32,000 nt of DNA from Phycisphaera mikurensis NBRC 102666 (GTDB lineage Bacteria > Planctomycetota > Phycisphaerae > Phycisphaerales > Phycisphaeraceae), in NCBI RefSeq assembly GCF_000284115.1, contig NC_017080.1, positions 3,540,001-3,572,000 on the forward strand. The letters are read 5' to 3'. Position 1 is the first letter of the stretch. Every line of letters starts with the position of its first letter. Below, one piece after another: positions 1,749 through 24,313 of the stretch. The notes beneath the pieces are model-generated. The model was not told the origin of the DNA. It did not search any database and saw only the letters and a list, made by a program, of their open reading frames with translations. Position numbers and translations under genes: made by a program.

Positions 1749-3776
1749 TCAGCCGCCCCGCTCCGCCAGCAGCTGCGTGTCGTCTTCGTAGCAGTAGACC
1801 CAGCCCGCGCCGGGCTCCCCCGCGTCCACCGGCTCCACGATCGGGTGCTCGGCGGCCCGGGCGTGCGCCCGCGCGTGCCGGTTCGGGGACGCGTCGCAGC
1901 AGCCGACCGCCCCGCACGCGGCGCAGCGGCGGAGGTGGACCCACGGCTCACCGGCCGCCACGCAGGCCGGGCACACGAGCCCGGCCCGCGCGGCTCCGGG
2001 CAGCGGCGGGAGCCGCAGCATCTCCGCGTGCGTGCACGCGGCGGAGGCGCCCGGCCCCGCGTCGACGGGCTCGGCGGGCACGTGGTGCAGCCCCGCCACC
2101 CACGCCGCCAGCTCGCGGCGGAAGGCCGCGTCGTCTCCGCCGGGCACGAAGAGGCGCGGCGGCGTGAGGCGCGGGTCGGCCTCGATCGCGTGCCGCACCG
2201 CCTCGGCCGCCTCGGGCGTGTCGTCGGCGACGATGACGGCCGCCGCGTCGGCTGCGCCCGCGGCGAGCAGGGCCTCGGCGCGCGTGTTGCTCCCGCGGTG
2301 GACGACGAGGGCCCCGCCACCGGCGGGCCGGAGCTCGCGCTCCGCCTCCGCCTCGAGCGTCGACGCCCGCCCCGGGTCCAGCGTCACCACGCTCACGTCC
2401 AGCGGCGAGCTTCGCAGCAACCCCAGCAGCGACTCCGCCCGCTCGCCGTACCCCGCCAGCACCACCCGCGGCCGGTCGCCGCCGCCTCCGGAGCCGCGGA
2501 CCGCCGGCGTTTCCGCCGATCCGGGACCGCGGTCCGCGGATCCCGCTGCCCCCACGAGCTTCCGCGAGGCGGCCGAGAGCAGCGGCGTGGCCAGCATCGA
2601 GACCACCGTCGCCGCGATGAACAGGTTCACGCCGCGCTCCGCAGCGCCGCCGGGCGTCAGCCCCGCCGCCGCCCCGGTCGCCTGCAGCACGAAGGCGAAC
2701 TCGCCCACCTGGGCCGTGAGCAGCCCCGCCGCGCCCGCCACCGCCCAGCGGCCGCCCGCGAGCCGCACCCCCGCCGCCGTGACGAGCGCCTTGAGCGCCA
2801 CCAGCGCCAGCACGCAGCCGACCACGGCCAGCGGGTTCGCCCAGACGAAGCCCGGGTCCAGCCGCATGCCGACCGAGGCGAAGAACACCGCGGAGAACAG
2901 CACCTGCAGCGGCATCACCTCGCCGAAGGCGTGGTGGCTGAAGCGGCTCTCGCTGATGAGCAGCCCCGCGAGGAAGGCCCCCAGCGCGAGGCTCACGCCG
3001 GCCAGCGACGTGAGCCAGGCGAGCCCGAAGCACACCGCCACGAGCGTCAGCAGGAAGACCTCCGCCGAGCACGTGCGTGCCACCCGCTCGATGACCGCCG
3101 GCACGATCCGCCGGGCGAGCAGCAGCACCGCCGCGACGATCCCGCCCGCCTTCGCCAGCGCCCACAGGAGCGCCGGCACGCCCCCGGCCCCGCCGTCCGC
3201 CCCGCCCGCCGCCGAGTCGCCCGCCGAGGTCGCCGCTCCGAGCATCGGCACCACCAGCACCATCGCCACCACCGCGAGGTCCTGGAAGATCAGCACCCCC
3301 AGCGTCGCCTGCCCCTCGTCGCTGCCGGTCCGCCGCTCGCCCGCCAGCAGCTTGAGCACGATCGCCGTCGACGACAGCGACACGAGGCACCCCGTGAAGA
3401 CCGCCGCCCGCCAGCCGACGCCCGCAACCACCAGCACCGCCGCCACCGCGGCGACGGTGCCGATCACCTGCGCGGCCCCCGCGATGAAGATGAGCCGCGA
3501 GATCTTCGCCAGCTTCTCCAGCGAAAACTCGATGCCGATCGTGAACAGCAGCAGCACGACGCCCACCTCGGCAAGCTGCGCAACCATCGCGTCGTCCTCC
3601 ACCACGCCCAAGCCGAAAGGCCCGAGCAACACGCCCGCGAGCAGGAAGCCGAGGATCGGCGCGACGCCGACCTTCACGCACGCGAAGGCGATGGCGGCGC
3701 AGCCCAGCAGCAACGCCACCATCTCCGGCAGCCGCGGGAGGGCGTCGCCGGCGGCGAGGGTGGCTCGGAGCATCAT
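1749..3776 (-). CDS. CPA2/Kef-type monovalent cation:proton antiporter with a TrkA-N/RCK-like segment and a C-terminal UBP-type zinc-finger module
   Basis: ATG (revcomp of 3774-3776), 675 aa. The N-terminal ~400 aa form a multi-pass membrane domain of Kef/CPA2 appearance (ILGFLLAGVLLGPFGLG, LLLFTIGIEFS, many Gly/Ala/Leu helices). A soluble Rossmann-like part follows (RVVLAGYGERAESLLGLL...VVTLD). The last ~95 aa are a Cys/His-rich module (CPAC...WVHLRRCAACGAVGCCDASPNRHARAH...HP...WVYCYEDD). Confidence 0.85.
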   Translation of the reverse strand: MMLRATLAAGDALPRLPEMVALLLGCAAIAFACVKVGVAPILGFLLAGVLLGPFGLGVVEDDAMVAQLAEVGVVLLLFTIGIEFSLEKLAKISRLIFIAGAAQVIGTVAAVAAVLVVAGVGWRAAVFTGCLVSLSSTAIVLKLLAGERRTGSDEGQATLGVLIFQDLAVVAMVLVVPMLGAATSAGDSAAGGADGGAGGVPALLWALAKAGGIVAAVLLLARRIVPAVIERVARTCSAEVFLLTLVAVCFGLAWLTSLAGVSLALGAFLAGLLISESRFSHHAFGEVMPLQVLFSAVFFASVGMRLDPGFVWANPLAVVGCVLALVALKALVTAAGVRLAGGRWAVAGAAGLLTAQVGEFAFVLQATGAAAGLTPGGAAERGVNLFIAATVVSMLATPLLSAASRKLVGAAGSADRGPGSAETPAVRGSGGGGDRPRVVLAGYGERAESLLGLLRSSPLDVSVVTLDPGRASTLEAEAERELRPAGGGALVVHRGSNTRAEALLAAGAADAAAVIVADDTPEAAEAVRHAIEADPRLTPPRLFVPGGDDAAFRRELAAWVAGLHHVPAEPVDAGPGASAACTHAEMLRLPPLPGAARAGLVCPACVAAGEPWVHLRRCAACGAVGCCDASPNRHARAHARAAEHPIVEPVDAGEPGAGWVYCYEDDTQLLAERGG

Positions 3777-3949
3777 CGGAAGAAGCTAGCGCATCGTGCG
3801 CCGAACCCCCCGCGCCGCCTCCGGACCGATCGACCGCCGGCGGGCCACCGCAGAAACCCGAACCCGATGGGAACCCGCCGCCGCTCGCCCGCGTCTGAAG
3901 GTTGAACGCCCCGCCCCGCGGGCCTCCGCACCTCCGCCCGAGCCCCTCC

Positions 3950-8137: not shown

Positions 8138-10396
8138 TCACTCGTGCCGCGAGCGGGTGAACGCCATCAGACGCTCGTGCGTCCCCGGCGCGTCCTCCCC
8201 GGGCTCGGGTCGCCGCAGGGTGTAGTTGCCGTCGGCGTCCATGTCCCAGGCCAGGCGGCGGTCGGTGCGGAGGATGTCGAGCAGGTGGTCGATGCGCTTC
8301 CGCAACGCCGGGTCGTAGATCGGGGTGATGCACTCGACGCGGTTGTTCAGGTTGCGGTACATCCAGTCCGCGCTGCCGATGAAGGTCTCCGGCTCGCCCG
8401 CGTTGTGGAAGCGGAACACCCGGCTGTGCTCGAGGAATCGGCCGATGACGCTGCTGACCTCGATGTTCTCGGAGAGACCGGGCACGCCGGGGCGGATGCA
8501 GCAGAAGCCGCGCACGAAGAGCTCGACCTTCACGCCGACTCGGCTCGCGGCGTAGAGCCGGCGGGCGATGCCGTGGTCCTCGAGTTGATTCATCTTCGCG
8601 ACGATCGACGGGCGGTCGGGGTCGGCGGGGTCGCTGCCGCGCTCGACCCAGCCCGCGGCGTGATCGATCTCCCGCTGGATGAGCTGGCCGAAGCGGCGGC
8701 GCATGTTGACCGGAGCGATGAGCAGGTGGTCGAAATCTTCCTTCAGGCTGCGGCCGGTGAGGAAGTGGAACAGCTCGACCAGGTCGCGGGTGATCCGCTT
8801 GTCGGCGGTGAAGAGGCCCAGATCGGTGTAGAGGTTGGCGGTCTTGGAGTGGTAGTTGCCGGTGCCGATGTGGGCGTAGACCTTCATCCCGGCGTCCTCC
8901 TCGCGGACGACGAGCGCAGTCTTGGTGTGGGTCTTGAGGCCGACGAGGCCGTAGACGACGTGCACGCCGGCCTTCTCCAGCCGTCGCGCCAGCTGCACGT
9001 TGCGCTCTTCGTCGAAGCGGGCCTTCAGCTCGACCAGGCACACGACCTGCTTGCCGGCCTCGGCGGCGGCGATGAGCGTGGGGATGAAGGGCGAGTCGGT
9101 GCCGGTGCGGTAGAGCGTGAGCTTGATCGCGACGACCTTGGGGTCGCGGGCGGCCTGCTTGATGAAGGCCTCGACGCTGTGCTCGAAGCTCTCGTAGGGG
9201 TGGTGCACGAGCAGGTCCCCCTGGCTGACCGTGGCGAAGACGTCGGACCCGCCCGCGGTGGACTCGCCGGCCACCAGGCGCGGCGGGGTCATCGGCTTCC
9301 ACTTGGGGTACTTGAGGTCGGGCCGGTCGACGGCGGCGTGCACCGCGAAGAGGTCGGTGTAGTCGAGCTCGGCGGTCATCCGGTAGATGTCCTCCTCCCG
9401 CAAGCCCAGCTCGGCGAGCAGGTAGCGGACCATCGGGTGGTCCGCCTCGGCGTCGACCTCCAGCCGCACGCAGCTGGCGAAACGCCGGTCACGCAGCTCC
9501 TGGTTCACCAGCTCGAGCAGGTCTTCGGCGTCCTCCTCGTCGCGCTCCAGGTCGGCGTTGCGGGTGATGCGGAAGGGCTCGCAATGGACGACCTCCATGC
9601 CCTCGAACAGCCGGCCGAGGTTCTGGCGGATGATGTCGATGAGGGCGACGAAGCGGTAGACGTCGCGGCCGTCCTCGTCCCGCTCGCCCGGCCGGTGCAA
9701 CGCGACCCACTGCGGCATCATCGCCGGCACCTTGACGCGGGCGAACTCCAGCGCGGGGCCCTCGGGGTCGTCGGGGTCGTCGAGCACGGCGGCGGCGTCG
9801 GAGTTGGCGCCGATGCCCGACTTCGCCGGCGGGCGGAGCATGACGCCCAGCGAGGTGGACAGGTTGGAGAGGAACGGGAAGGGGTGCCCGGGGTCGACGG
9901 CGAGCGGGGTGAGCAGCGGGAAGAGCTGCTCCTCGAAGTAGGCGTTGGCCGTCTGCTGGTCGGCGTCGGAGAGCTTCGCCCACGGGAGCAGGTGGATGCC
10001 CTCGGCGGAGAGCTTCGGCTTGAGGTCCTCGGCGAAGCACTCCGCCTGCTTGGCGAGCATGGGCAGCACCTGCTCGCGGATGCCGTGCAGCTGCTCGGTG
10101 GCGGTCCTCCCGTCGGGGCTGCGCTGCGTGAGCCCCGCCTTGATCTGCCGCTTCAGCCCTCCCACCCGCTTCTGGAAGTACTCATCGAGGTTGGAGTTGA
10201 AGATCGCGAGGAAGGCGATCCGCTCCAGCAGCGGCGTCCGCTCGTCGCAGGCCATGTGCAGCACGCGCTTGTTGAAGATGAGCCACTGCGTCTCGCGGTT
10301 GAGGAAGTGGTCCTGCTCGTCGGGCGCAGCGATGGCGGCGTCGGGGTCGGGGGCGGGACGCGGGGTCCGTTTGCGGCGGTGGGAGGTCTTGGCCAT
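8138..10396 (-). CDS. ppk: Polyphosphate kinase 1
   Basis: ATG (revcomp of 10394-10396), TGA at 8138-8140, 752 aa. It is PPK1-like throughout: FLNRETQWLIFNKRVL, ERIAFLAIFNSNLDEYF, LLVHHPYESF, the autophosphorylation-region TGTDSPFI, two PLD-like HKD-type blocks (LKTHTKTALVVR, GTGNYH) and SADWMYRNL. Sequence upstream of Met in track ORF 8138..11254 is Pro/Arg-rich shadow. Confidence 0.95.
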   Translation of the reverse strand: MAKTSHRRKRTPRPAPDPDAAIAAPDEQDHFLNRETQWLIFNKRVLHMACDERTPLLERIAFLAIFNSNLDEYFQKRVGGLKRQIKAGLTQRSPDGRTATEQLHGIREQVLPMLAKQAECFAEDLKPKLSAEGIHLLPWAKLSDADQQTANAYFEEQLFPLLTPLAVDPGHPFPFLSNLSTSLGVMLRPPAKSGIGANSDAAAVLDDPDDPEGPALEFARVKVPAMMPQWVALHRPGERDEDGRDVYRFVALIDIIRQNLGRLFEGMEVVHCEPFRITRNADLERDEEDAEDLLELVNQELRDRRFASCVRLEVDAEADHPMVRYLLAELGLREEDIYRMTAELDYTDLFAVHAAVDRPDLKYPKWKPMTPPRLVAGESTAGGSDVFATVSQGDLLVHHPYESFEHSVEAFIKQAARDPKVVAIKLTLYRTGTDSPFIPTLIAAAEAGKQVVCLVELKARFDEERNVQLARRLEKAGVHVVYGLVGLKTHTKTALVVREEDAGMKVYAHIGTGNYHSKTANLYTDLGLFTADKRITRDLVELFHFLTGRSLKEDFDHLLIAPVNMRRRFGQLIQREIDHAAGWVERGSDPADPDRPSIVAKMNQLEDHGIARRLYAASRVGVKVELFVRGFCCIRPGVPGLSENIEVSSVIGRFLEHSRVFRFHNAGEPETFIGSADWMYRNLNNRVECITPIYDPALRKRIDHLLDILRTDRRLAWDMDADGNYTLRRPEPGEDAPGTHERLMAFTRSRHE

Positions 10397-10646
10397 GGGT
10401 CGGGAGCGGAGCGGCCGGGCGAGGGTAAAGCGATCCGAGGAGCGATCGGTCCCGCTCGCTCGAGCCTGGGGCGAGCCGACGCGGCGGGAGGTGGCCCGGG
10501 CAGGACGGGCGTGGCCGCTCCTCCACGGAGCCGCCAGCCAGGGCCCACCGCCCATCGGCCGAGAAGACCCAGCCCGCCGCGGCGTTGTCATGCCCCTTTC
10601 GTTCCTTCGTTTCTGCTTCGCCTGCGCCACGCGGCGGGTGCGTTCT

Positions 10647-12224
10647 TCACCTCGACTCCGTGAGCGCGTAGCAGACGTCGCCGTGGAGGAGGTACAGGCG
10701 CAGCGCGGGCCCGAGCTTCTTGGCCAGGGAGAGGCCCAGGTCGGGCCGGTCGGTGACGAGGTGGGGCACGGGATCGGCGGCGTCGACGCGGCGGTGGGGC
10801 TGGGCGGCCGACAGCCAGTCCTGGTGCTCGCGGGCCCATTCGGCGGCGTCGCGGAGGGCGAGCATCGCCTCGCGGGGGTGGGGGTGCTCGGCGGAGTGGG
10901 TGTGGCGTGCGAGCAGGTGCAGGCGGCCGTTGGCGTCGAGCGCGAGCTGGACGAGCGGCTGGCCGGGGCAGCCGGGCTGGATCGCCTCGAGACGGGGCCC
11001 GGAGGGCCGGGCGGTGGAGAGGCGTTCGAGCAGGCCCTCCAGCGGGGCCGCGGGGTGGGCGGGCGCTTCGTCCTCGGCGTCGCCGGCCGCGGCGTGCCGC
11101 CGGTGGAGGTCGAGCGAGCGGACGGCGGCGGCGCCGCGGATCGCCGGGCTTTCCGGGTCGGAAGGGGCTTGGGTCCGCGGCTCCGCGGGGTCGGGCCCGG
11201 AGCCGGCGGACGCGGCCGGCGGCCCGGGCTCCGGATCCGCCGCCTGCTCGGCATCGGGCAGGCTGCGGAGCCAGCCCAGCAGCGAGGCCCAGGGGTCGGG
11301 GCCGTCGCCGCGGCGGACGAAGCCCAGCGGCGTGCGGGCCACGGGGTTCATCCGCGGCAGGCTGCCCAGCGGCTCGGGCGGGCTGTCGACGTCGTCGACG
11401 AGGGCGCGGGCCAGCGCCCCGGCGGCATCCCGGGCGGCGGGCGGCTCCGAGCCCATCACCATGAGCCCGAAGCCCGCGGAAGCGATCGCGGGAGCGACGC
11501 CGATGAGCCGGCGGAGCATCGCGGCCGCGCCCTCGATGGCGACCGGGTCCGCGCCCGAGAGCAGCGACCAGTCGGCGACGCCGGCGAACCGCGCGGCGGC
11601 CTCGGGGCCGTCGACGCCGGCGTTCACGAGCACGGCCGCCGGCGCGCGGGTGGCGTGGGTCAGCAGCGTCGCGACCCGCTCCCGCAGCCCGGCCTCGGGA
11701 GAGAGGCGCTCCAGCACCGCGGCGGCGTCCCCGCCGCCGGGGCCGATCCACTCCAGCTCGAAGCCTTCGCCGACGCCGCTCTCGGGAGCCGTGCCCAGCG
11801 GGTCCTCCTCGTCTTCCTCCTGGATCGGGTGCAGCAGCAGCACCGGCCCGTCGCGGTGGGCGATCAGCTGGGCGTACTGCGGCAGCCAAGCGGAGGCCAA
11901 GCCCGGCAGGTTGCCGAGCAGGACGGCCTCCAGGGGCGGCGATGCGGCGGGCCGAGGGGCGGGGTCGGCGGGCACCTCGCGGCCGGCGAGCTTGAGGCGG
12001 TGGGCCGGGCCGGCCGCGCCCGGAGGCGGCGCAGCGGGACCCGGGCGGGCGGGAGGCGGGTCGCCCGGGGGCGGAGCCGCGCCGGCCCCGGCGGCGGGCT
12101 TGGGGCGCAGCCGGACGGGTGCCGGGCCGCCGAGGCCCGGCGGCGCATCGCCAGGGGGGCTCAAGAAGAGCGTGGCGAGATCGTCGAGGGTCTGGCTGTC
12201 GTCCATGACAGGGTCTTTCTCCAT
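10647..12224 (-). CDS. Hypothetical 525-aa protein with Pro/Ala-rich disordered segments and a possible degenerate (Walker-A-less) ParA/MinD-like core
   Basis: ATG (revcomp of 12222-12224). It is the only frame in this interval with protein-like composition (acidic N-terminus MEKDPVMDDSQTLDDLATLFL, balanced D/E/L/V). It sits 130 bp downstream of the ParA-like gene on the same strand. I recognise no family with certainty. Confidence 0.6.
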   Translation of the reverse strand: MEKDPVMDDSQTLDDLATLFLSPPGDAPPGLGGPAPVRLRPKPAAGAGAAPPPGDPPPARPGPAAPPPGAAGPAHRLKLAGREVPADPAPRPAASPPLEAVLLGNLPGLASAWLPQYAQLIAHRDGPVLLLHPIQEEDEEDPLGTAPESGVGEGFELEWIGPGGGDAAAVLERLSPEAGLRERVATLLTHATRAPAAVLVNAGVDGPEAAARFAGVADWSLLSGADPVAIEGAAAMLRRLIGVAPAIASAGFGLMVMGSEPPAARDAAGALARALVDDVDSPPEPLGSLPRMNPVARTPLGFVRRGDGPDPWASLLGWLRSLPDAEQAADPEPGPPAASAGSGPDPAEPRTQAPSDPESPAIRGAAAVRSLDLHRRHAAAGDAEDEAPAHPAAPLEGLLERLSTARPSGPRLEAIQPGCPGQPLVQLALDANGRLHLLARHTHSAEHPHPREAMLALRDAAEWAREHQDWLSAAQPHRRVDAADPVPHLVTDRPDLGLSLAKKLGPALRLYLLHGDVCYALTESR

Positions 12225-12354
12225 CCGGGGGTCGCCGGTGGTCCGGCGGTCGCCGCCTCTCCCCGGTGGGGGTGGGGGCGTGGGCTCGATGAGCCGCCGG
12301 CTCGCGGAGCCGGGCGTTGTACGCGGCGTTGCCGCGTGGAGGTCGCAGCGAGCC

Positions 12355-13755
12355 TCAGGCGCCGGCGGGCTCCGGCGCGGCGGGGACGCGAACCGGGCTC
12401 GCGGGCACCCTCGCCGGGTCCGCGACCACCGGCTCCGCGACCACCTCCGCCACGCTGTTCGCCTCGCCGAGCGGGTTCACCTCGGTCAGGCGGTTGAAGG
12501 GATCGGCCGCCCACTGCCCGTCGATGACGAGGCGGTAGGCGTGGCGGCCGGCGGGCAGCTTCACGAGCGCCTGCCAGACGCCGAGCTCGGCGTTGCGGGT
12601 CATCGCGGTCGCTTCGGGGTCCCAGCCGTTCCAGGAGCCGGCGATCGTGATCCGGGCGCCGGCGTCGCCGGGCTGGACGAAGAGCGTCCCGTTGCGGGTG
12701 CAGCGGCATCCGCAGAGCCGCTCGATCGCGGCGGGCAGGACCGCCGGGGTGGGTGCGGCCGGCGGGGTGTCCCGCGCGGCGAGCGACTCCGCGTTGCGGC
12801 GGGAGAGGTCGCGGGTGCGGGCCACGAGCTCGGCGGCGCGGGACAGGCGGGCCGGTCCCGCGGCCCCGGCCGGCGTCGGGTCCGGCGCGGTGTCGCCGGG
12901 GACGGGCGCCGGCGCCTCGCCCGCCGGGTTCGCGTCCCGCGTCTCCGCCGCGAGCGGGGCCAGCATCTCCGCGGGCTCGGGCGGGTGGGCGACCAGCCAG
13001 TCGGCGAGCTTCACGAAGTCCGCCGCGGCCGAGCCGTCGGGATCGTACTCGCCGATCGCCCGACCGAAGCCGGCGGCCTCACGCAGCTTCTCGTCCTCGT
13101 GGATGCAAAGCGGCAGCACCTGCTCGCCGAAGTGCCGCTTCATCTGCCCGAGGATTTCGCGGTCGATGTTCCGGTCGGCCCGGTGCAGCGTGGGCAGCAC
13201 GCTGAAGCGGACGCGGTGGCCGGCCCGGCGGGCGAGCATGTCGATCGTCCGGGCCTGCTTGATGGCGCCCTGGAGCGCGAAGTAGCCGGTCTCCACCGGG
13301 ATGAGCACCTCCTGGCAGGCCCGCAGCGCGTTGAAGGTGAGCAGGCCGATCGACGGCGGGCAGTCGATGATGCAGTGGGCGTAGTCGCCGCCCTCCGCCC
13401 GCCCGAGCACCGCCGCCAGCCGCCGGTCCCGGTCCGAGGCGTTGGAGAGGCGCTGCTCGATGCCGGCGAGCGCGAGGCTGGAGGGCAGCAGGTCGAGGTT
13501 CCGGCGGACCCGCCAGAGGCAGTCCTCGAAGGCGATCGGCTCGCCCTCGGCGTTGCGTCCGCCGCCGAGCAGGTCGGCCACGCCGTGCTCGATCCCGTCC
13601 TCGGGCACCGAGAGGCCCAGGGCGCAGTGGCTCTGGGGGTCCATGTCCACGAGCAGCGTCTTGCGGCCGCGGCGGGCCAGCTCCGAGGACAGGTGGATGG
13701 CGGTGGTGGTTTTCCCGCACCCGCCCTTCTGGTTGATGATCGCCGTGGTTCGCAA
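12355..13755 (-). CDS. ParA/Soj-family deviant Walker-A ATPase fused to a C-terminal CBM48/AMPK-beta-like (E-set) glycan-binding module
   Basis: TTG start (revcomp of 13753-13755) gives MRTTAIINQKGGCGKTTTAIHL, a deviant Walker A with the signature Lys. Further ParA-like blocks are LLVDMDPQ, IIDCPPSIGLLTFNAL and VLIPVETGYFALQG. A ~100-aa Pro/Ala linker follows. Residues ~353-438 (nt ~12442-12699) read TLFVQPGDAGARITIAGSWNGWDP...GVWQALVKLPAGRHAYRLVIDGQWAADPFN, the classical CBM48/AMPK1_CBM pattern. Confidence 0.9.
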   Translation of the reverse strand: MRTTAIINQKGGCGKTTTAIHLSSELARRGRKTLLVDMDPQSHCALGLSVPEDGIEHGVADLLGGGRNAEGEPIAFEDCLWRVRRNLDLLPSSLALAGIEQRLSNASDRDRRLAAVLGRAEGGDYAHCIIDCPPSIGLLTFNALRACQEVLIPVETGYFALQGAIKQARTIDMLARRAGHRVRFSVLPTLHRADRNIDREILGQMKRHFGEQVLPLCIHEDEKLREAAGFGRAIGEYDPDGSAAADFVKLADWLVAHPPEPAEMLAPLAAETRDANPAGEAPAPVPGDTAPDPTPAGAAGPARLSRAAELVARTRDLSRRNAESLAARDTPPAAPTPAVLPAAIERLCGCRCTRNGTLFVQPGDAGARITIAGSWNGWDPEATAMTRNAELGVWQALVKLPAGRHAYRLVIDGQWAADPFNRLTEVNPLGEANSVAEVVAEPVVADPARVPASPVRVPAAPEPAGA

Positions 13756-14005
13756 GAGTCGTCCTCAGTGAGCGGGAGGGGAGGCGGAGCACCGGCCGGG
13801 TTCGACCGCCGATCCCGTTATCGGAGCCGGGTCGGGGACCGCGTGAGGATTGGCGCGGTCGGGCCGCCCCGTCCGTCTGATCGCCGTTCGCACGGCGGGC
13901 GATCCGGTGAGCGCCCGAGCCGCAACGCCCCCGCCGGGGGACGCCGCCCCGGGGCCACGAGGGACGCGGAGCGGCCGGCGGAGCTCCGCCCGCCATAGTG
14001 GCCCC

Positions 14006-15076
14006 GTGCCCGTGGAAGACCGCTACGTCCGCCTCGTCGAGGGCCGCTCCGCCGGCGTGCTCGCCTCCGCCGCCCGCGGGCTGCTGCGGGCGGCGACGCC
14101 GGCCTGGCGGCTCGGGCTCGCGATCGATCAGCAAAGAAAACGGCGCGGCCGCCGGCCGCTCGGCCGGCCGACCGCCTCCATCGGGAACCTCTCCGTGGGC
14201 GGAACCGGCAAGACGCCCGCCGTCGCCTGGGCCGTCCGCCGGCTGCTCGACGCCGGTCACCGCCCCGCCGTGCTCACCCGCGGCCACGGCGGCGACGCGC
14301 AGCGGCCGGCGGACGAGGTGCTCGAGCTGCGCGGGATGCTCCGCGACGCCGCCCCGGTCATCGCCGATCCCGACCGCCACGCCGCCGCCGCCGCCGCTCT
14401 CGCCGCGTCGCCGGGCCTCACCTGCTTCGTGCTCGACGACGGCTTCCAGCGGCTCGACGTCGCACGCGATCTCGACCTCGTGCTCGTCGACGCCAGCCGC
14501 ACGCTCGCCTCGGCCCGCTTGCTGCCCGGCGGCCTGCTCCGGGAGCCGCCCGCCGCGTTGACCCGCGCCGACGCGGTGCTGCTGACCCGCGTCGACCGCG
14601 CCGGCCCCGCCGCCACCGGCGAAACGGCCGCCTGGGTCACCCGCTGGCACGGCCGCCCGCCGCTCGCATCCTTCGCCCACCGCTGGTCGGGCGTCGACGC
14701 GTACCCGCCCGCCGGCGCGGCCCCGGCGATCGCCGGCCGGCGGCTCTACGCCGCCGCGGGCATCGGCCACCCCCGCGCCTTCGCCGAGCAGCTCGCCGCC
14801 GCCGGCGCCGAGGTCGTCGGCGCGGCCCGGCTCGCCGACCACCACCGGCCCACCGCCGGCGGGCTCGCCCGCCTCCACGCCGATGCCCGGGCCGCGGGCG
14901 CCGACGCCGTCGCCACCACGGAAAAGGACCGCGTGAAGTGGGCGATGCTGGATCCGGGACCCGATGCACTCCCGGTGCTGGTCCCCCGCCTCCGCTTCGA
15001 GCCCGTCGCCGGCGAGGCCGCCCTGCTCGCACTCCTCCGCGAGCGGCTCCCGCGGCCGGTCGATCGCCCGGCGTGA
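14006..15076 (+). CDS. lpxK: Tetraacyldisaccharide 4'-kinase (lipid A biosynthesis)
   Basis: P-loop block IGNLSVGGTGKTPAVAW, then VLTRGHGG, VLDDGFQ, LDLVLVD, LPGGLLREP, AGIGHPRAF and TTEKDRVKW, colinear with E. coli LpxK. The start is uncertain. GTG 14006 or 14012 gives an N-terminus of typical length. The track's TTG 13850 adds ~50 Arg/Pro-rich residues and is disfavoured. Confidence 0.85.
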   Translation: MPVEDRYVRLVEGRSAGVLASAARGLLRAATPAWRLGLAIDQQRKRRGRRPLGRPTASIGNLSVGGTGKTPAVAWAVRRLLDAGHRPAVLTRGHGGDAQRPADEVLELRGMLRDAAPVIADPDRHAAAAAALAASPGLTCFVLDDGFQRLDVARDLDLVLVDASRTLASARLLPGGLLREPPAALTRADAVLLTRVDRAGPAATGETAAWVTRWHGRPPLASFAHRWSGVDAYPPAGAAPAIAGRRLYAAAGIGHPRAFAEQLAAAGAEVVGAARLADHHRPTAGGLARLHADARAAGADAVATTEKDRVKWAMLDPGPDALPVLVPRLRFEPVAGEAALLALLRERLPRPVDRPA

Positions 15077-20571: not shown

Positions 20572-20680
20572 AGCCGGCAATGACCTACTTTCCCGCGGTT
20601 GCAGTATCATCGGCGTGCTGGGCTTAACGGCCGTGTTCGGAATGGGAACGGGTGGGACCCCAGCACTGTTGTCACCGGCA
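20572..20680 (-). rRNA. rrf: 5S ribosomal RNA
   Basis: The reverse complement reads TGCCGGTGACAACAGTGCTGGGGTCCCACCCGTTCCCATTCCGAACACGGCCGTTAAGCCCAGCACGCCGATGATACTGCAACCGCGGGAAAGTAGGTCATTGCCGGC. It contains the universal CCGAAC...GTTAAGC core, the GGGAA.GTAGGTC element and terminal helix I pairing. The ends are +/- a few nt. Confidence 0.9.
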
Positions 20681-20826
20681 AAGCGTTCACCCCGCGTTGG
20701 CGGGGCTCACACTCGCTCTTGCAAGTGAGTGGCTGATGACAGTGGAAGCGTTCACCGGACCCGAAAGGTCCTGAGGTGCGTGACTCACCTCCGACGGACA
20801 CCGATCTACCGAGAGTACCGGTGACG

Positions 20827-23619
<2,793 letters not shown>

Positions 23620-24162: not shown

Positions 24163-24172
24163 CGGCCCCGCC

Positions 24173-24259
24173 GGTGCGGTGGCTGAGTGGTCGAAGGCTG
24201 CGGTTTTGAAAACCGCCGGGCGGGCAACCGTCCCGTGGGTTCGAATCCCACCCGCACCG
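24173..24259 (+). tRNA. tRNA-Ser, anticodon UGA (87 nt, long variable arm, CCA not encoded)
   Basis: Manual cloverleaf: acceptor GGTGCGG/CCGCACC plus discriminator G; D arm GCT-GAGTGGTCGAA-GGC; anticodon stem GCGGT/ACCGC with loop TT-TGA-AA; an 18-nt variable arm CGGGCGGGCAACCGTCCC; T arm GTGGG-TTCGAAT-CCCAC. It is colinear with E. coli tRNA-Ser(UGA). Confidence 0.95.
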
Positions 24260-24313
24260 TGATGAGCCGTCTTGGGCGGCTCCGCCTTCCCTCAACCCGA
24301 CCCCCACCCCGCG

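Follow-up and report, generated by a model that had tools for sequence, protein, structure and literature searches.

ParA/MinD ATPases position chromosomes, plasmids, carboxysomes, chemoreceptor arrays and division sites, and we know of no active positioning system for glycogen. Could a ParA protein that carries its own glycan-binding module provide one? The question is raised by a gene in a stretch of 32,000 nucleotides (nt) of Phycisphaera mikurensis NBRC 102666 (contig NC_017080.1, positions 3,540,001 to 3,572,000), which we analysed at its full length and call the window; positions are counted from its first nucleotide. The gene encodes a protein, hereafter ParA-CBM, that joins a Soj-type ParA ATPase to a carbohydrate-binding module (CBM) of the AMPK-beta/CBM48 type. 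A preliminary description of the sequence had taken it for an orphan ParA that would be tethered directly to glycogen or to another glycan-bearing structure. Its features are the following.

12355..13755, minus strand: ParA-CBM gene (WP_014438369.1 / UniProt I0IIS3), 466 amino acids (aa), TTG start
13762..13766, minus strand: Shine-Dalgarno-like motif GAGGA, 6 nt before the TTG, read from the sequence
12982..13755, minus strand: Soj-type ParA ATPase domain, residues 1-258, delimited by Pfam AAA_31/CbiA, PDB matches and conservation
13705..13734, minus strand: Walker A motif NQKGGCGKTT, deviant, including the signature Lys10
12712..12981, minus strand: Pro/Ala-rich linker, residues 259-348, 27% Ala and 18% Pro
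12775..12843, minus strand: helix in the linker, residues 305-327, SRAAELVxRxRxLSxR
12433..12711, minus strand: AMPK-beta/CBM48-type module, residues 349-441, with W378, R408, W415, L429 and N433

The predicted product is 100% identical to WP_014438369.1 / I0IIS3, and the NCBI annotation gives the same 466-aa protein. The TTG start proposed in the preliminary description is well placed: besides the GAGGA motif upstream, the homologues in the alignment share the start residue and open with MRT(I/T)AIINQKGG. Since the protein begins directly at the P-loop strand and lacks a signal peptide, it is predicted to be cytoplasmic. Public annotations describe it only as an "AAA family ATPase", a "chromosome partitioning protein" or "Soj-like".

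The N-terminal domain is a complete ParA/Soj ATPase, as had been claimed. Pfam places AAA_31 on residues 1-177 (E 1.5e-39; 136 bits against a threshold of 27), and CbiA and CBP_BcsQ match across residues 5-253 (CbiA 60.8 bits against 25.4). Conservation was counted over 85 sequences of 38-100% identity. The two Walker A lysines K10 and K15, the switch I/Walker A' D39 (LLVDMDPQ) and the Walker B D131 (IIDCPP) are invariant in 85/85. In a PDB sequence search, the closest solved relatives are chromosomal ParA/Soj proteins, namely 8ray (5e-39), 6iub and 1wcv, with E values from 1e-34 to 1e-39, whereas MinD matches only at about 1e-12, against 1e-38 for ParA. Judged by its motifs and by curated models, ParA-CBM is a bona fide member of the ParA/MinD family of ATPases. 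It shares motifs and a full-length fold with the chromosomal ParA/Soj of T. thermophilus (1wcv/2bek), H. pylori (6iub/8jmj) and B. subtilis and with 8ray, at 34-41% identity. With B. subtilis Soj, the identity of the ParA domain is 40-41% in most members and 34.6% in P. mikurensis. Where Soj has R189, which binds DNA non-specifically, most members (55/85) carry Arg, and P. mikurensis has Asp194, followed by Arg195.

Three residues near the active site differ from Soj-type ParAs, which have Val, Asn and Ala in their place: C13 in Walker A (KGGCGKT, 13705-13734; 81/85) and the invariant pair H43 and C44 in DPQ(S/G)HC (13624-13629; 85/85). These residues adjoin the nucleotide and the dimer interface, and could conceivably form a switch that makes dimerisation sensitive to redox state or metal.

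The ATPase domain is followed by the Pro/Ala-rich linker that had been seen in the sequence, whose length differs by about 200 aa between species and which is predicted to be disordered (predicted local distance difference test, pLDDT, <50 in AlphaFold). The helix within it is invariant in an alignment of 28 closer relatives, and other subgroups bear different linker helix motifs. Beyond the linker, the module that the preliminary description had placed at nt 12442-12699, and for which it suggested a Pfam check, was recovered, and that range is correct: AMPK1_CBM (PF16561) matches residues 365-441 with E 4.5e-11 and 43.2 bits against a gathering score of 26.8. The related CBM_48 (PF02922) is sub-threshold in the P. 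mikurensis protein (19.8 against 22.4) and is recorded for most relatives, with 27.1 bits in one of them (P0246). A PDB sequence search matches the C-terminus to the CBM of AMPK beta1 (1z0n, E 1.9e-8) and also to SEX4. In an AlphaFold model built on the 28-sequence alignment, residues ~340-440 have pLDDT >90, and the modelled module superposes on 1z0m_C with a template-modelling (TM) score of 0.86 and a root mean square deviation (rmsd) of 1.5 Å over 81 columns, and on 4yef_D with a TM of 0.88.

In rat AMPK beta1, residues W100, K126, W133, L146 and T148 contact the carbohydrate, and glycogen binding is lost on mutation of several of them (PMC2642990). We mapped these positions onto ParA-CBM through a HMMER alignment to 1z0n. 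W100 and W133 correspond to W378 and W415, both kept in 84/84 sequences, and K126 to R408, where 83 sequences have Arg and one has Lys. L146 falls on position 429, where the family has Phe, Tyr or Leu (L429 in P. mikurensis), and T148 on a near-invariant Glu431, so that four of the five beta1 contact residues are kept. N433, at the position of AMPK N150, is Asn in 78 sequences and Asp in 5. Such conservation of ligand contacts is expected of a working glycan site. By sequence, fold and four of five contact residues, the module is of bona fide AMPK-beta/CBM48 type, and ParA-CBM would accordingly be expected to bind glycogen.

Is the fusion a peculiarity of one genome? In a scan of one genome per species, the survey of distribution that the preliminary description had suggested, a relative turned up in at least 585 species genomes. 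Among the 80 best genomic matches, 79 span query residues 1 to at least 436, and the exception (L057) ends at a contig edge. The genomes are labelled Phycisphaeraceae, Phycisphaerales, Sedimentisphaerales, Phycisphaerae or Planctomycetota, with a few metagenome-assembled genomes labelled Pirellulales. The two-domain architecture is common to all 120 best protein clusters. These numbers leave virtually no room for an artefact of assembly or annotation, or for a pattern matched by chance, which we excluded on the strength of the shared architecture, the near full-length matches and the number of species. The fusion is conserved across the class Phycisphaerae under purifying selection. A full-text literature search found no description of the ParA plus CBM architecture, in line with the earlier suggestion that it is uncharacterised, though the prefixes 'para' and 'mcda' flooded several queries.

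The C-terminal 171 aa gave 5910 matches among 1.84 billion cluster representatives; the six full-length single-CBM matches that were scanned with Pfam were all ParA fusions (6/6; 45-53% identity over the single or best stretch), and two higher-scoring matches with multiple repeats, also scanned, were tandem CBM-only proteins. Very many of the best CBM matches (P0135-P0200) are proteins that consist of tandem AMPK1_CBM repeats and nothing else; those of about 480 aa carry 4 repeats, and the one of 1812 aa (P0135) up to 18.

The motor is accompanied by a second conserved gene, directly downstream, which we call the partner.

10647..12206, minus strand: partner gene (WP_014438368.1 / I0IIS2), 519 aa from the second ATG, no Pfam family
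12207..12354, minus strand: intergenic spacer from ParA-CBM to the partner, 148 nt
12162..12206, minus strand: conserved N-terminal acidic helix of the partner, MDDxQTLDDLAxLFL, followed by a basic GPAP(V/I)RLxPK motif
11247..11945, minus strand: central alpha/beta domain of the partner, residues ~88-320, AF2 pLDDT >90
10662..11039, minus strand: C-terminal alpha/beta domain of the partner, residues ~390-515, from the alignment and the AF2 model

We located partner homologues around 85 ParA-CBM loci with a hidden Markov model (HMM) of the partner protein. The partner lies directly downstream on the same strand in 60/85 sequences, with a median spacer of about 110 nt (44 loci with a mappable partner start), and in 3 more cases, truncated or weak, it overlaps the end of the ParA-CBM frame. 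It is 6-8 kb off, on the other strand, in Poriferisphaera corsica and Poriferisphaera sp. WC338. No terminator-like site was found on the gene strand in the spacer between the two genes. The spacer contains two short G+C-rich inverted repeats without a T-run (cgcggc...gccgcg and ccggctc...gagccgg; 12225-12354, minus strand), which might influence the stability of the mRNA or the ratio in which the two genes are expressed.

The partner and 14 homologues have no Pfam match, and the partner is also without an NCBIfam family. In Foldseek its central domain is closest to FlhG/FleN (4rz2_A, E 6.7e-5, probability 1.0, TM 0.46); the FlhG/FleN matches span E 6.7e-5 to 4e-3, and other SIMIBI NTPases come next. 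The place of the P-loop is taken by an invariant GNLPGLA, which lacks Lys, Ser and Thr. A profile-profile comparison of the partner with the ParA domain showed no similarity (hhalign probability 0.2%). From the predicted model, we read the partner as a probable ParA/MinD-fold protein that lost nucleotide binding. The claim of direct tethering to a glycan gains strength from the conserved contact residues of the module. In view of the conserved second gene, however, the motor is probably not adaptor-free.

How might the two domains work together? The reading that we prefer, though we hold it tentatively and it may well turn out to be wrong, is that ParA-CBM bridges glycogen particles and the nucleoid through ATP-switched dimers with two flexible CBM arms. 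ATP binding would produce a ParA sandwich dimer, which would bind nucleoid DNA non-specifically, as Soj does. The dimer would offer two CBM arms on long tethers, giving an ATP-dependent avidity for the multivalent surface of glycogen, or another alpha-glucan. Since an AMPK-type CBM binds weakly on its own, a dimer should bind glycogen with higher avidity. The logic would be that of MinD, whose dimer has two membrane-targeting helices: a weak surface-targeting element in cis, with avidity doubling on ATP-dependent dimerisation. Unlike in MinD, of which ParA-CBM is not an orthologue, the surface would be a polysaccharide particle and not a membrane. The bridge would spread glycogen particles over the nucleoid, such that each daughter cell receives a share. 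ATP hydrolysis would break the bridge, and the trigger could be the putatively co-transcribed partner, an unlinked ParB, or both. Phycisphaerae genomes commonly have CAZyme (carbohydrate-active enzyme) gene clusters with glycogen as the predicted substrate (PMC11266412). A stronger version, that ParA-CBM and the P-loop-less partner form an ATP-driven machine that positions and partitions glycogen granules on the nucleoid, is possible and in our opinion doubtful.

Several observations weigh against the bridge between glycogen and nucleoid. The partner was not detected by the HMM in 21/85 loci, mainly in a more divergent, Sedimentisphaerales-like subgroup, and therefore the mechanism cannot rely on it everywhere; this set also includes a Poriferisphaera-like locus (L004) and two loci truncated by a contig end (L036, L057). 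In a classical diffusion ratchet, the activator of the ATPase must sit on the cargo, so the partner or ParB would have to be on glycogen. No glycogen-metabolism gene is a conserved neighbour of ParA-CBM. The Glu at the AMPK T148 equivalent means that ligand specificity may differ, and the P. mikurensis protein has an Asp at the position of Soj R189.

Short open reading frames (ORFs) downstream of ParA-CBM in the Sedimentisphaerales-like subgroup were considered as a reduced partner and rejected, being instead secreted-type P_proprotein/PEP-CTERM proteins. A P-domain (proprotein-convertase) protein of about 200-230 aa repeatedly follows ParA-CBM there (L046 8416-9114, L058 5225-5869, L060 8222-8878, L069 8303-8908, L071 8391-9071), and one of the five has a sub-threshold PEP-CTERM match.

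A different reading of the same protein is that it is the chromosomal ParA of the Phycisphaerae, i.e. a Soj orthologue served by an unlinked ParB-parS, with the CBM as an accessory input. Glycogen or energy status could then, for example, modulate segregation, or granules could hitchhike passively, which makes this reading overlap with the bridge described above; we think it rather unlikely, but worth serious consideration. ParA-CBM is without two defining features of a parABS locus, an adjacent parB and a nearby parS. The absence of an adjacent ParB-like gene had been noted before and extends to the whole window: no ParB-like ORF was found there by phmmer with B. subtilis Spo0J (the ParB found in two other loci served as positive control) or by Pfam scans of the window ORFs, and the parS consensus TGTTTCACGTGAAACA had 0 matches within 3 mismatches. 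Elsewhere, parB is within 7 kb of ParA-CBM in only 2/85, and the slot usually held by parB is occupied by a different conserved protein, the partner. The P. mikurensis copy, with its lower identity to Soj and no Arg at the R189 equivalent, also speaks against it. Yet parB itself is unlinked in this class, so that the term orphan describes the window, which has neither parB nor parS, and may not describe the protein. In the two loci where it is close, a chromosomal-type ParB ends a divergent maf-lpxK-hldE-parB cluster about 4 kb from ParA-CBM, an arrangement of one lineage. No ParA-family gene occurs within 8 kb of parB in three large Phycisphaerae contigs, and four of four parB loci have no adjoining ParA-family gene, except for ParA-CBM about 4 kb off in L085. 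The unlinked ParB is of chromosomal type (ParB_N, HTH_ParB and ParB_C), and in strain D3-23 it is encoded 447 kb from ParA-CBM on the same chromosome. All Phycisphaerae ParBs that we inspected (5/5) keep the canonical N-terminal motif RPSRLGRGLSSLM (RLGRGLSSLM), which we take to be the peptide that stimulates the ATPase of ParA; a ParA for this ParB should therefore exist in these genomes. Their identity to Spo0J (37-41%) is in the same range as that of the ParA domain of most members to Soj. In addition, ParA-CBM is found class-wide and the partner is not, so a universal activator such as ParB would be needed. On these grounds, ParA-CBM may be the chromosomal ParA of the class.

Glycogen could also be a signal and not a cargo. 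ParA-CBM would then be a spatial regulator of the MipZ/MinD type, whose ATPase is sequestered or activated by glycogen and which, with the partner, controls for example the placement of the division site. An AMPK-beta-type CBM makes AMPK a glycogen sensor (PMC2642990), the partner core is predicted to be MinD/FlhG-like, and the genes around ParA-CBM have housekeeping and envelope functions (maf, lpxK) and none in glycogen metabolism. FtsZ is missing from Planctomycetes, and Phycisphaerales still divide by binary fission, by a mechanism that is not known (PMC5147048). However, no partner was detected in part of the class, and the partner's MinD-like assignment is a single predicted model with a modest TM of 0.46 and no sequence-profile support. 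We find a role of glycogen as mere signal improbable. Less probable still is that the CBM-like domain no longer binds alpha-glucan and is a protein-protein module or recognises another glycan, in a BcsQ-like role of organising a polysaccharide synthesis or secretion machine. The Glu at the T148 position and the lack of glycogen genes nearby would fit with this, as would weak BcsQ matches (Pfam E 2.5e-14; TIGR03371 85 bits against a cut-off of 157.85). But these scores are far under curated cut-offs (PRK10037 gives 34 against 399), and we rejected the identification as BcsQ; no cellulose or exopolysaccharide (EPS) synthase genes are present in the loci examined, and the two stacking Trp and the basic and hydrophobic contacts are strictly conserved.

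The loci of the unlinked parB have features of their own. The maf-lpxK-hldE-parB cluster adjoins a che gene cluster (L085 4992-9728; also L006 and L037), and a che cluster is also near parB in L088. A gene with HisKA and HATPase_c and no sensor domain (259-319 aa) is divergent upstream of the unlinked parB in three Phycisphaerae genomes (L086 6762-9059; L087 6988-9017; L088 6561-9224), apparently as a conserved neighbour.

The bridge that we favour resembles known systems in part. Orphan ParA/MinD ATPases that position cargo include McdA-McdB (carboxysomes), PomXYZ, ParC-ParP, PpfA and MipZ, in which a separate adaptor recognises the cargo. ParA-CBM is like the McdAB type in pairing a ParA-family ATPase with a non-ParB partner encoded directly downstream, in the nucleoid as presumed matrix and in the proposed role of distributing a large cytoplasmic body. 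It differs in that the putative cargo-binding module is in cis and in that the partner belongs to no Pfam family and, unlike McdB, is predicted to have a MinD-like core without a P-loop. McdA itself (6non) is a weaker structural and sequence match to ParA-CBM than Soj-type proteins, and cyanobacterial McdA is not known to have the signature Lys that ParA-CBM has. Compared with Soj, ParA-CBM adds a C-terminal extension of about 200 aa (linker, helix and CBM), is encoded outside a parAB operon and is followed by a different conserved gene; Cys13, His43 and Cys44 replace Val, Asn and Ala. The partner shares the predicted alpha/beta core of its central domain with FlhG/FleN, but lacks a Walker A, carries additional motifs at the N-terminus and a further domain at the C-terminus, and shows no detectable sequence-profile similarity.

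On the side of the module, ParA-CBM shares with the AMPK beta CBM both the fold (TM 0.86-0.88) and the Trp/Lys(Arg)/Trp/Leu contacts. AMPK beta, SEX4 and PTST use CBM48 as a glycogen- or starch-targeting module on non-hydrolytic proteins, and in plant PTST a helix precedes the CBM, as in the ParA-CBM model. Unlike these, ParA-CBM is bacterial, is fused to a P-loop ATPase and has Glu at the T148 equivalent.

If the stronger version holds, ParA-CBM and the partner would be the first machine to segregate a polysaccharide storage body actively. With glycogen as its target, ParA-CBM would also be the first ParA to recognise in cis something that is neither protein, DNA nor membrane. The bridge would link glycogen stores to the chromosome, which would be undescribed in bacteria. 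If ParA-CBM is in addition the sole Soj of the class, chromosome segregation in the FtsZ-less Phycisphaerae would be coupled to the carbon reserve. The class-wide fusion of a motor and a glycogen module is in any case a directly testable candidate for the organisation of glycogen granules, and the partner is a new protein family, apparently with a ParA/MinD fold without P-loop.

The other neighbours of ParA-CBM vary among genomes. Upstream in the window is a divergent gene:

13850..15076, plus strand: lpxK, divergent from ParA-CBM

A divergent lpxK is upstream in about 25/85 sequences, usually with maf, and dnaJ-clpB is downstream in 13-15/85. We considered both pairs as functional links and took them instead as shared gene-order ancestry. 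A link to polyphosphate was rejected as well: ppk1 is two genes downstream in P. mikurensis, and this was found in only 2/85, which are close relatives. The Pfam match of ppk1 starts about 300 codons into its reading frame.

Very long ORFs of up to 1092 aa overlap these genes (8138-11254, minus strand, and 9945-13998, plus strand). Codon-position GC favours the ParA-CBM and ppk1 frames over them, and the ORFs that overlap ppk1, the partner and ParA-CBM out of frame or on the opposite strand were discarded as high-GC artefacts. For the partner, a stop-to-stop frame on the opposite strand scores like the coding frame; codon-position GC does not discriminate here, and the gene call is made because homologues exist.

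The GC content of the window is about 0.70-0.80 outside the rRNA region and 0.54-0.58 at ~20.5-24 kb, because of that region. A local GC-skew peak near 13-14 kb tracks gene orientation and is uninformative on the replication origin. The low-GC region holds a 23S and 5S rRNA pair with a tRNA-Ser(TGA) beside it (entries 20572-23610, minus strand, and 24172-24260, plus strand). There is no 16S gene in the 32-kb window, and the rRNA operon therefore appears split. Finally, a gene at 1749-3785 (minus strand) encodes an Na+/H+ exchanger with TrkA_N and a C-terminal zf-UBP (E 2.7e-10), which is unusual for a bacterial transporter.

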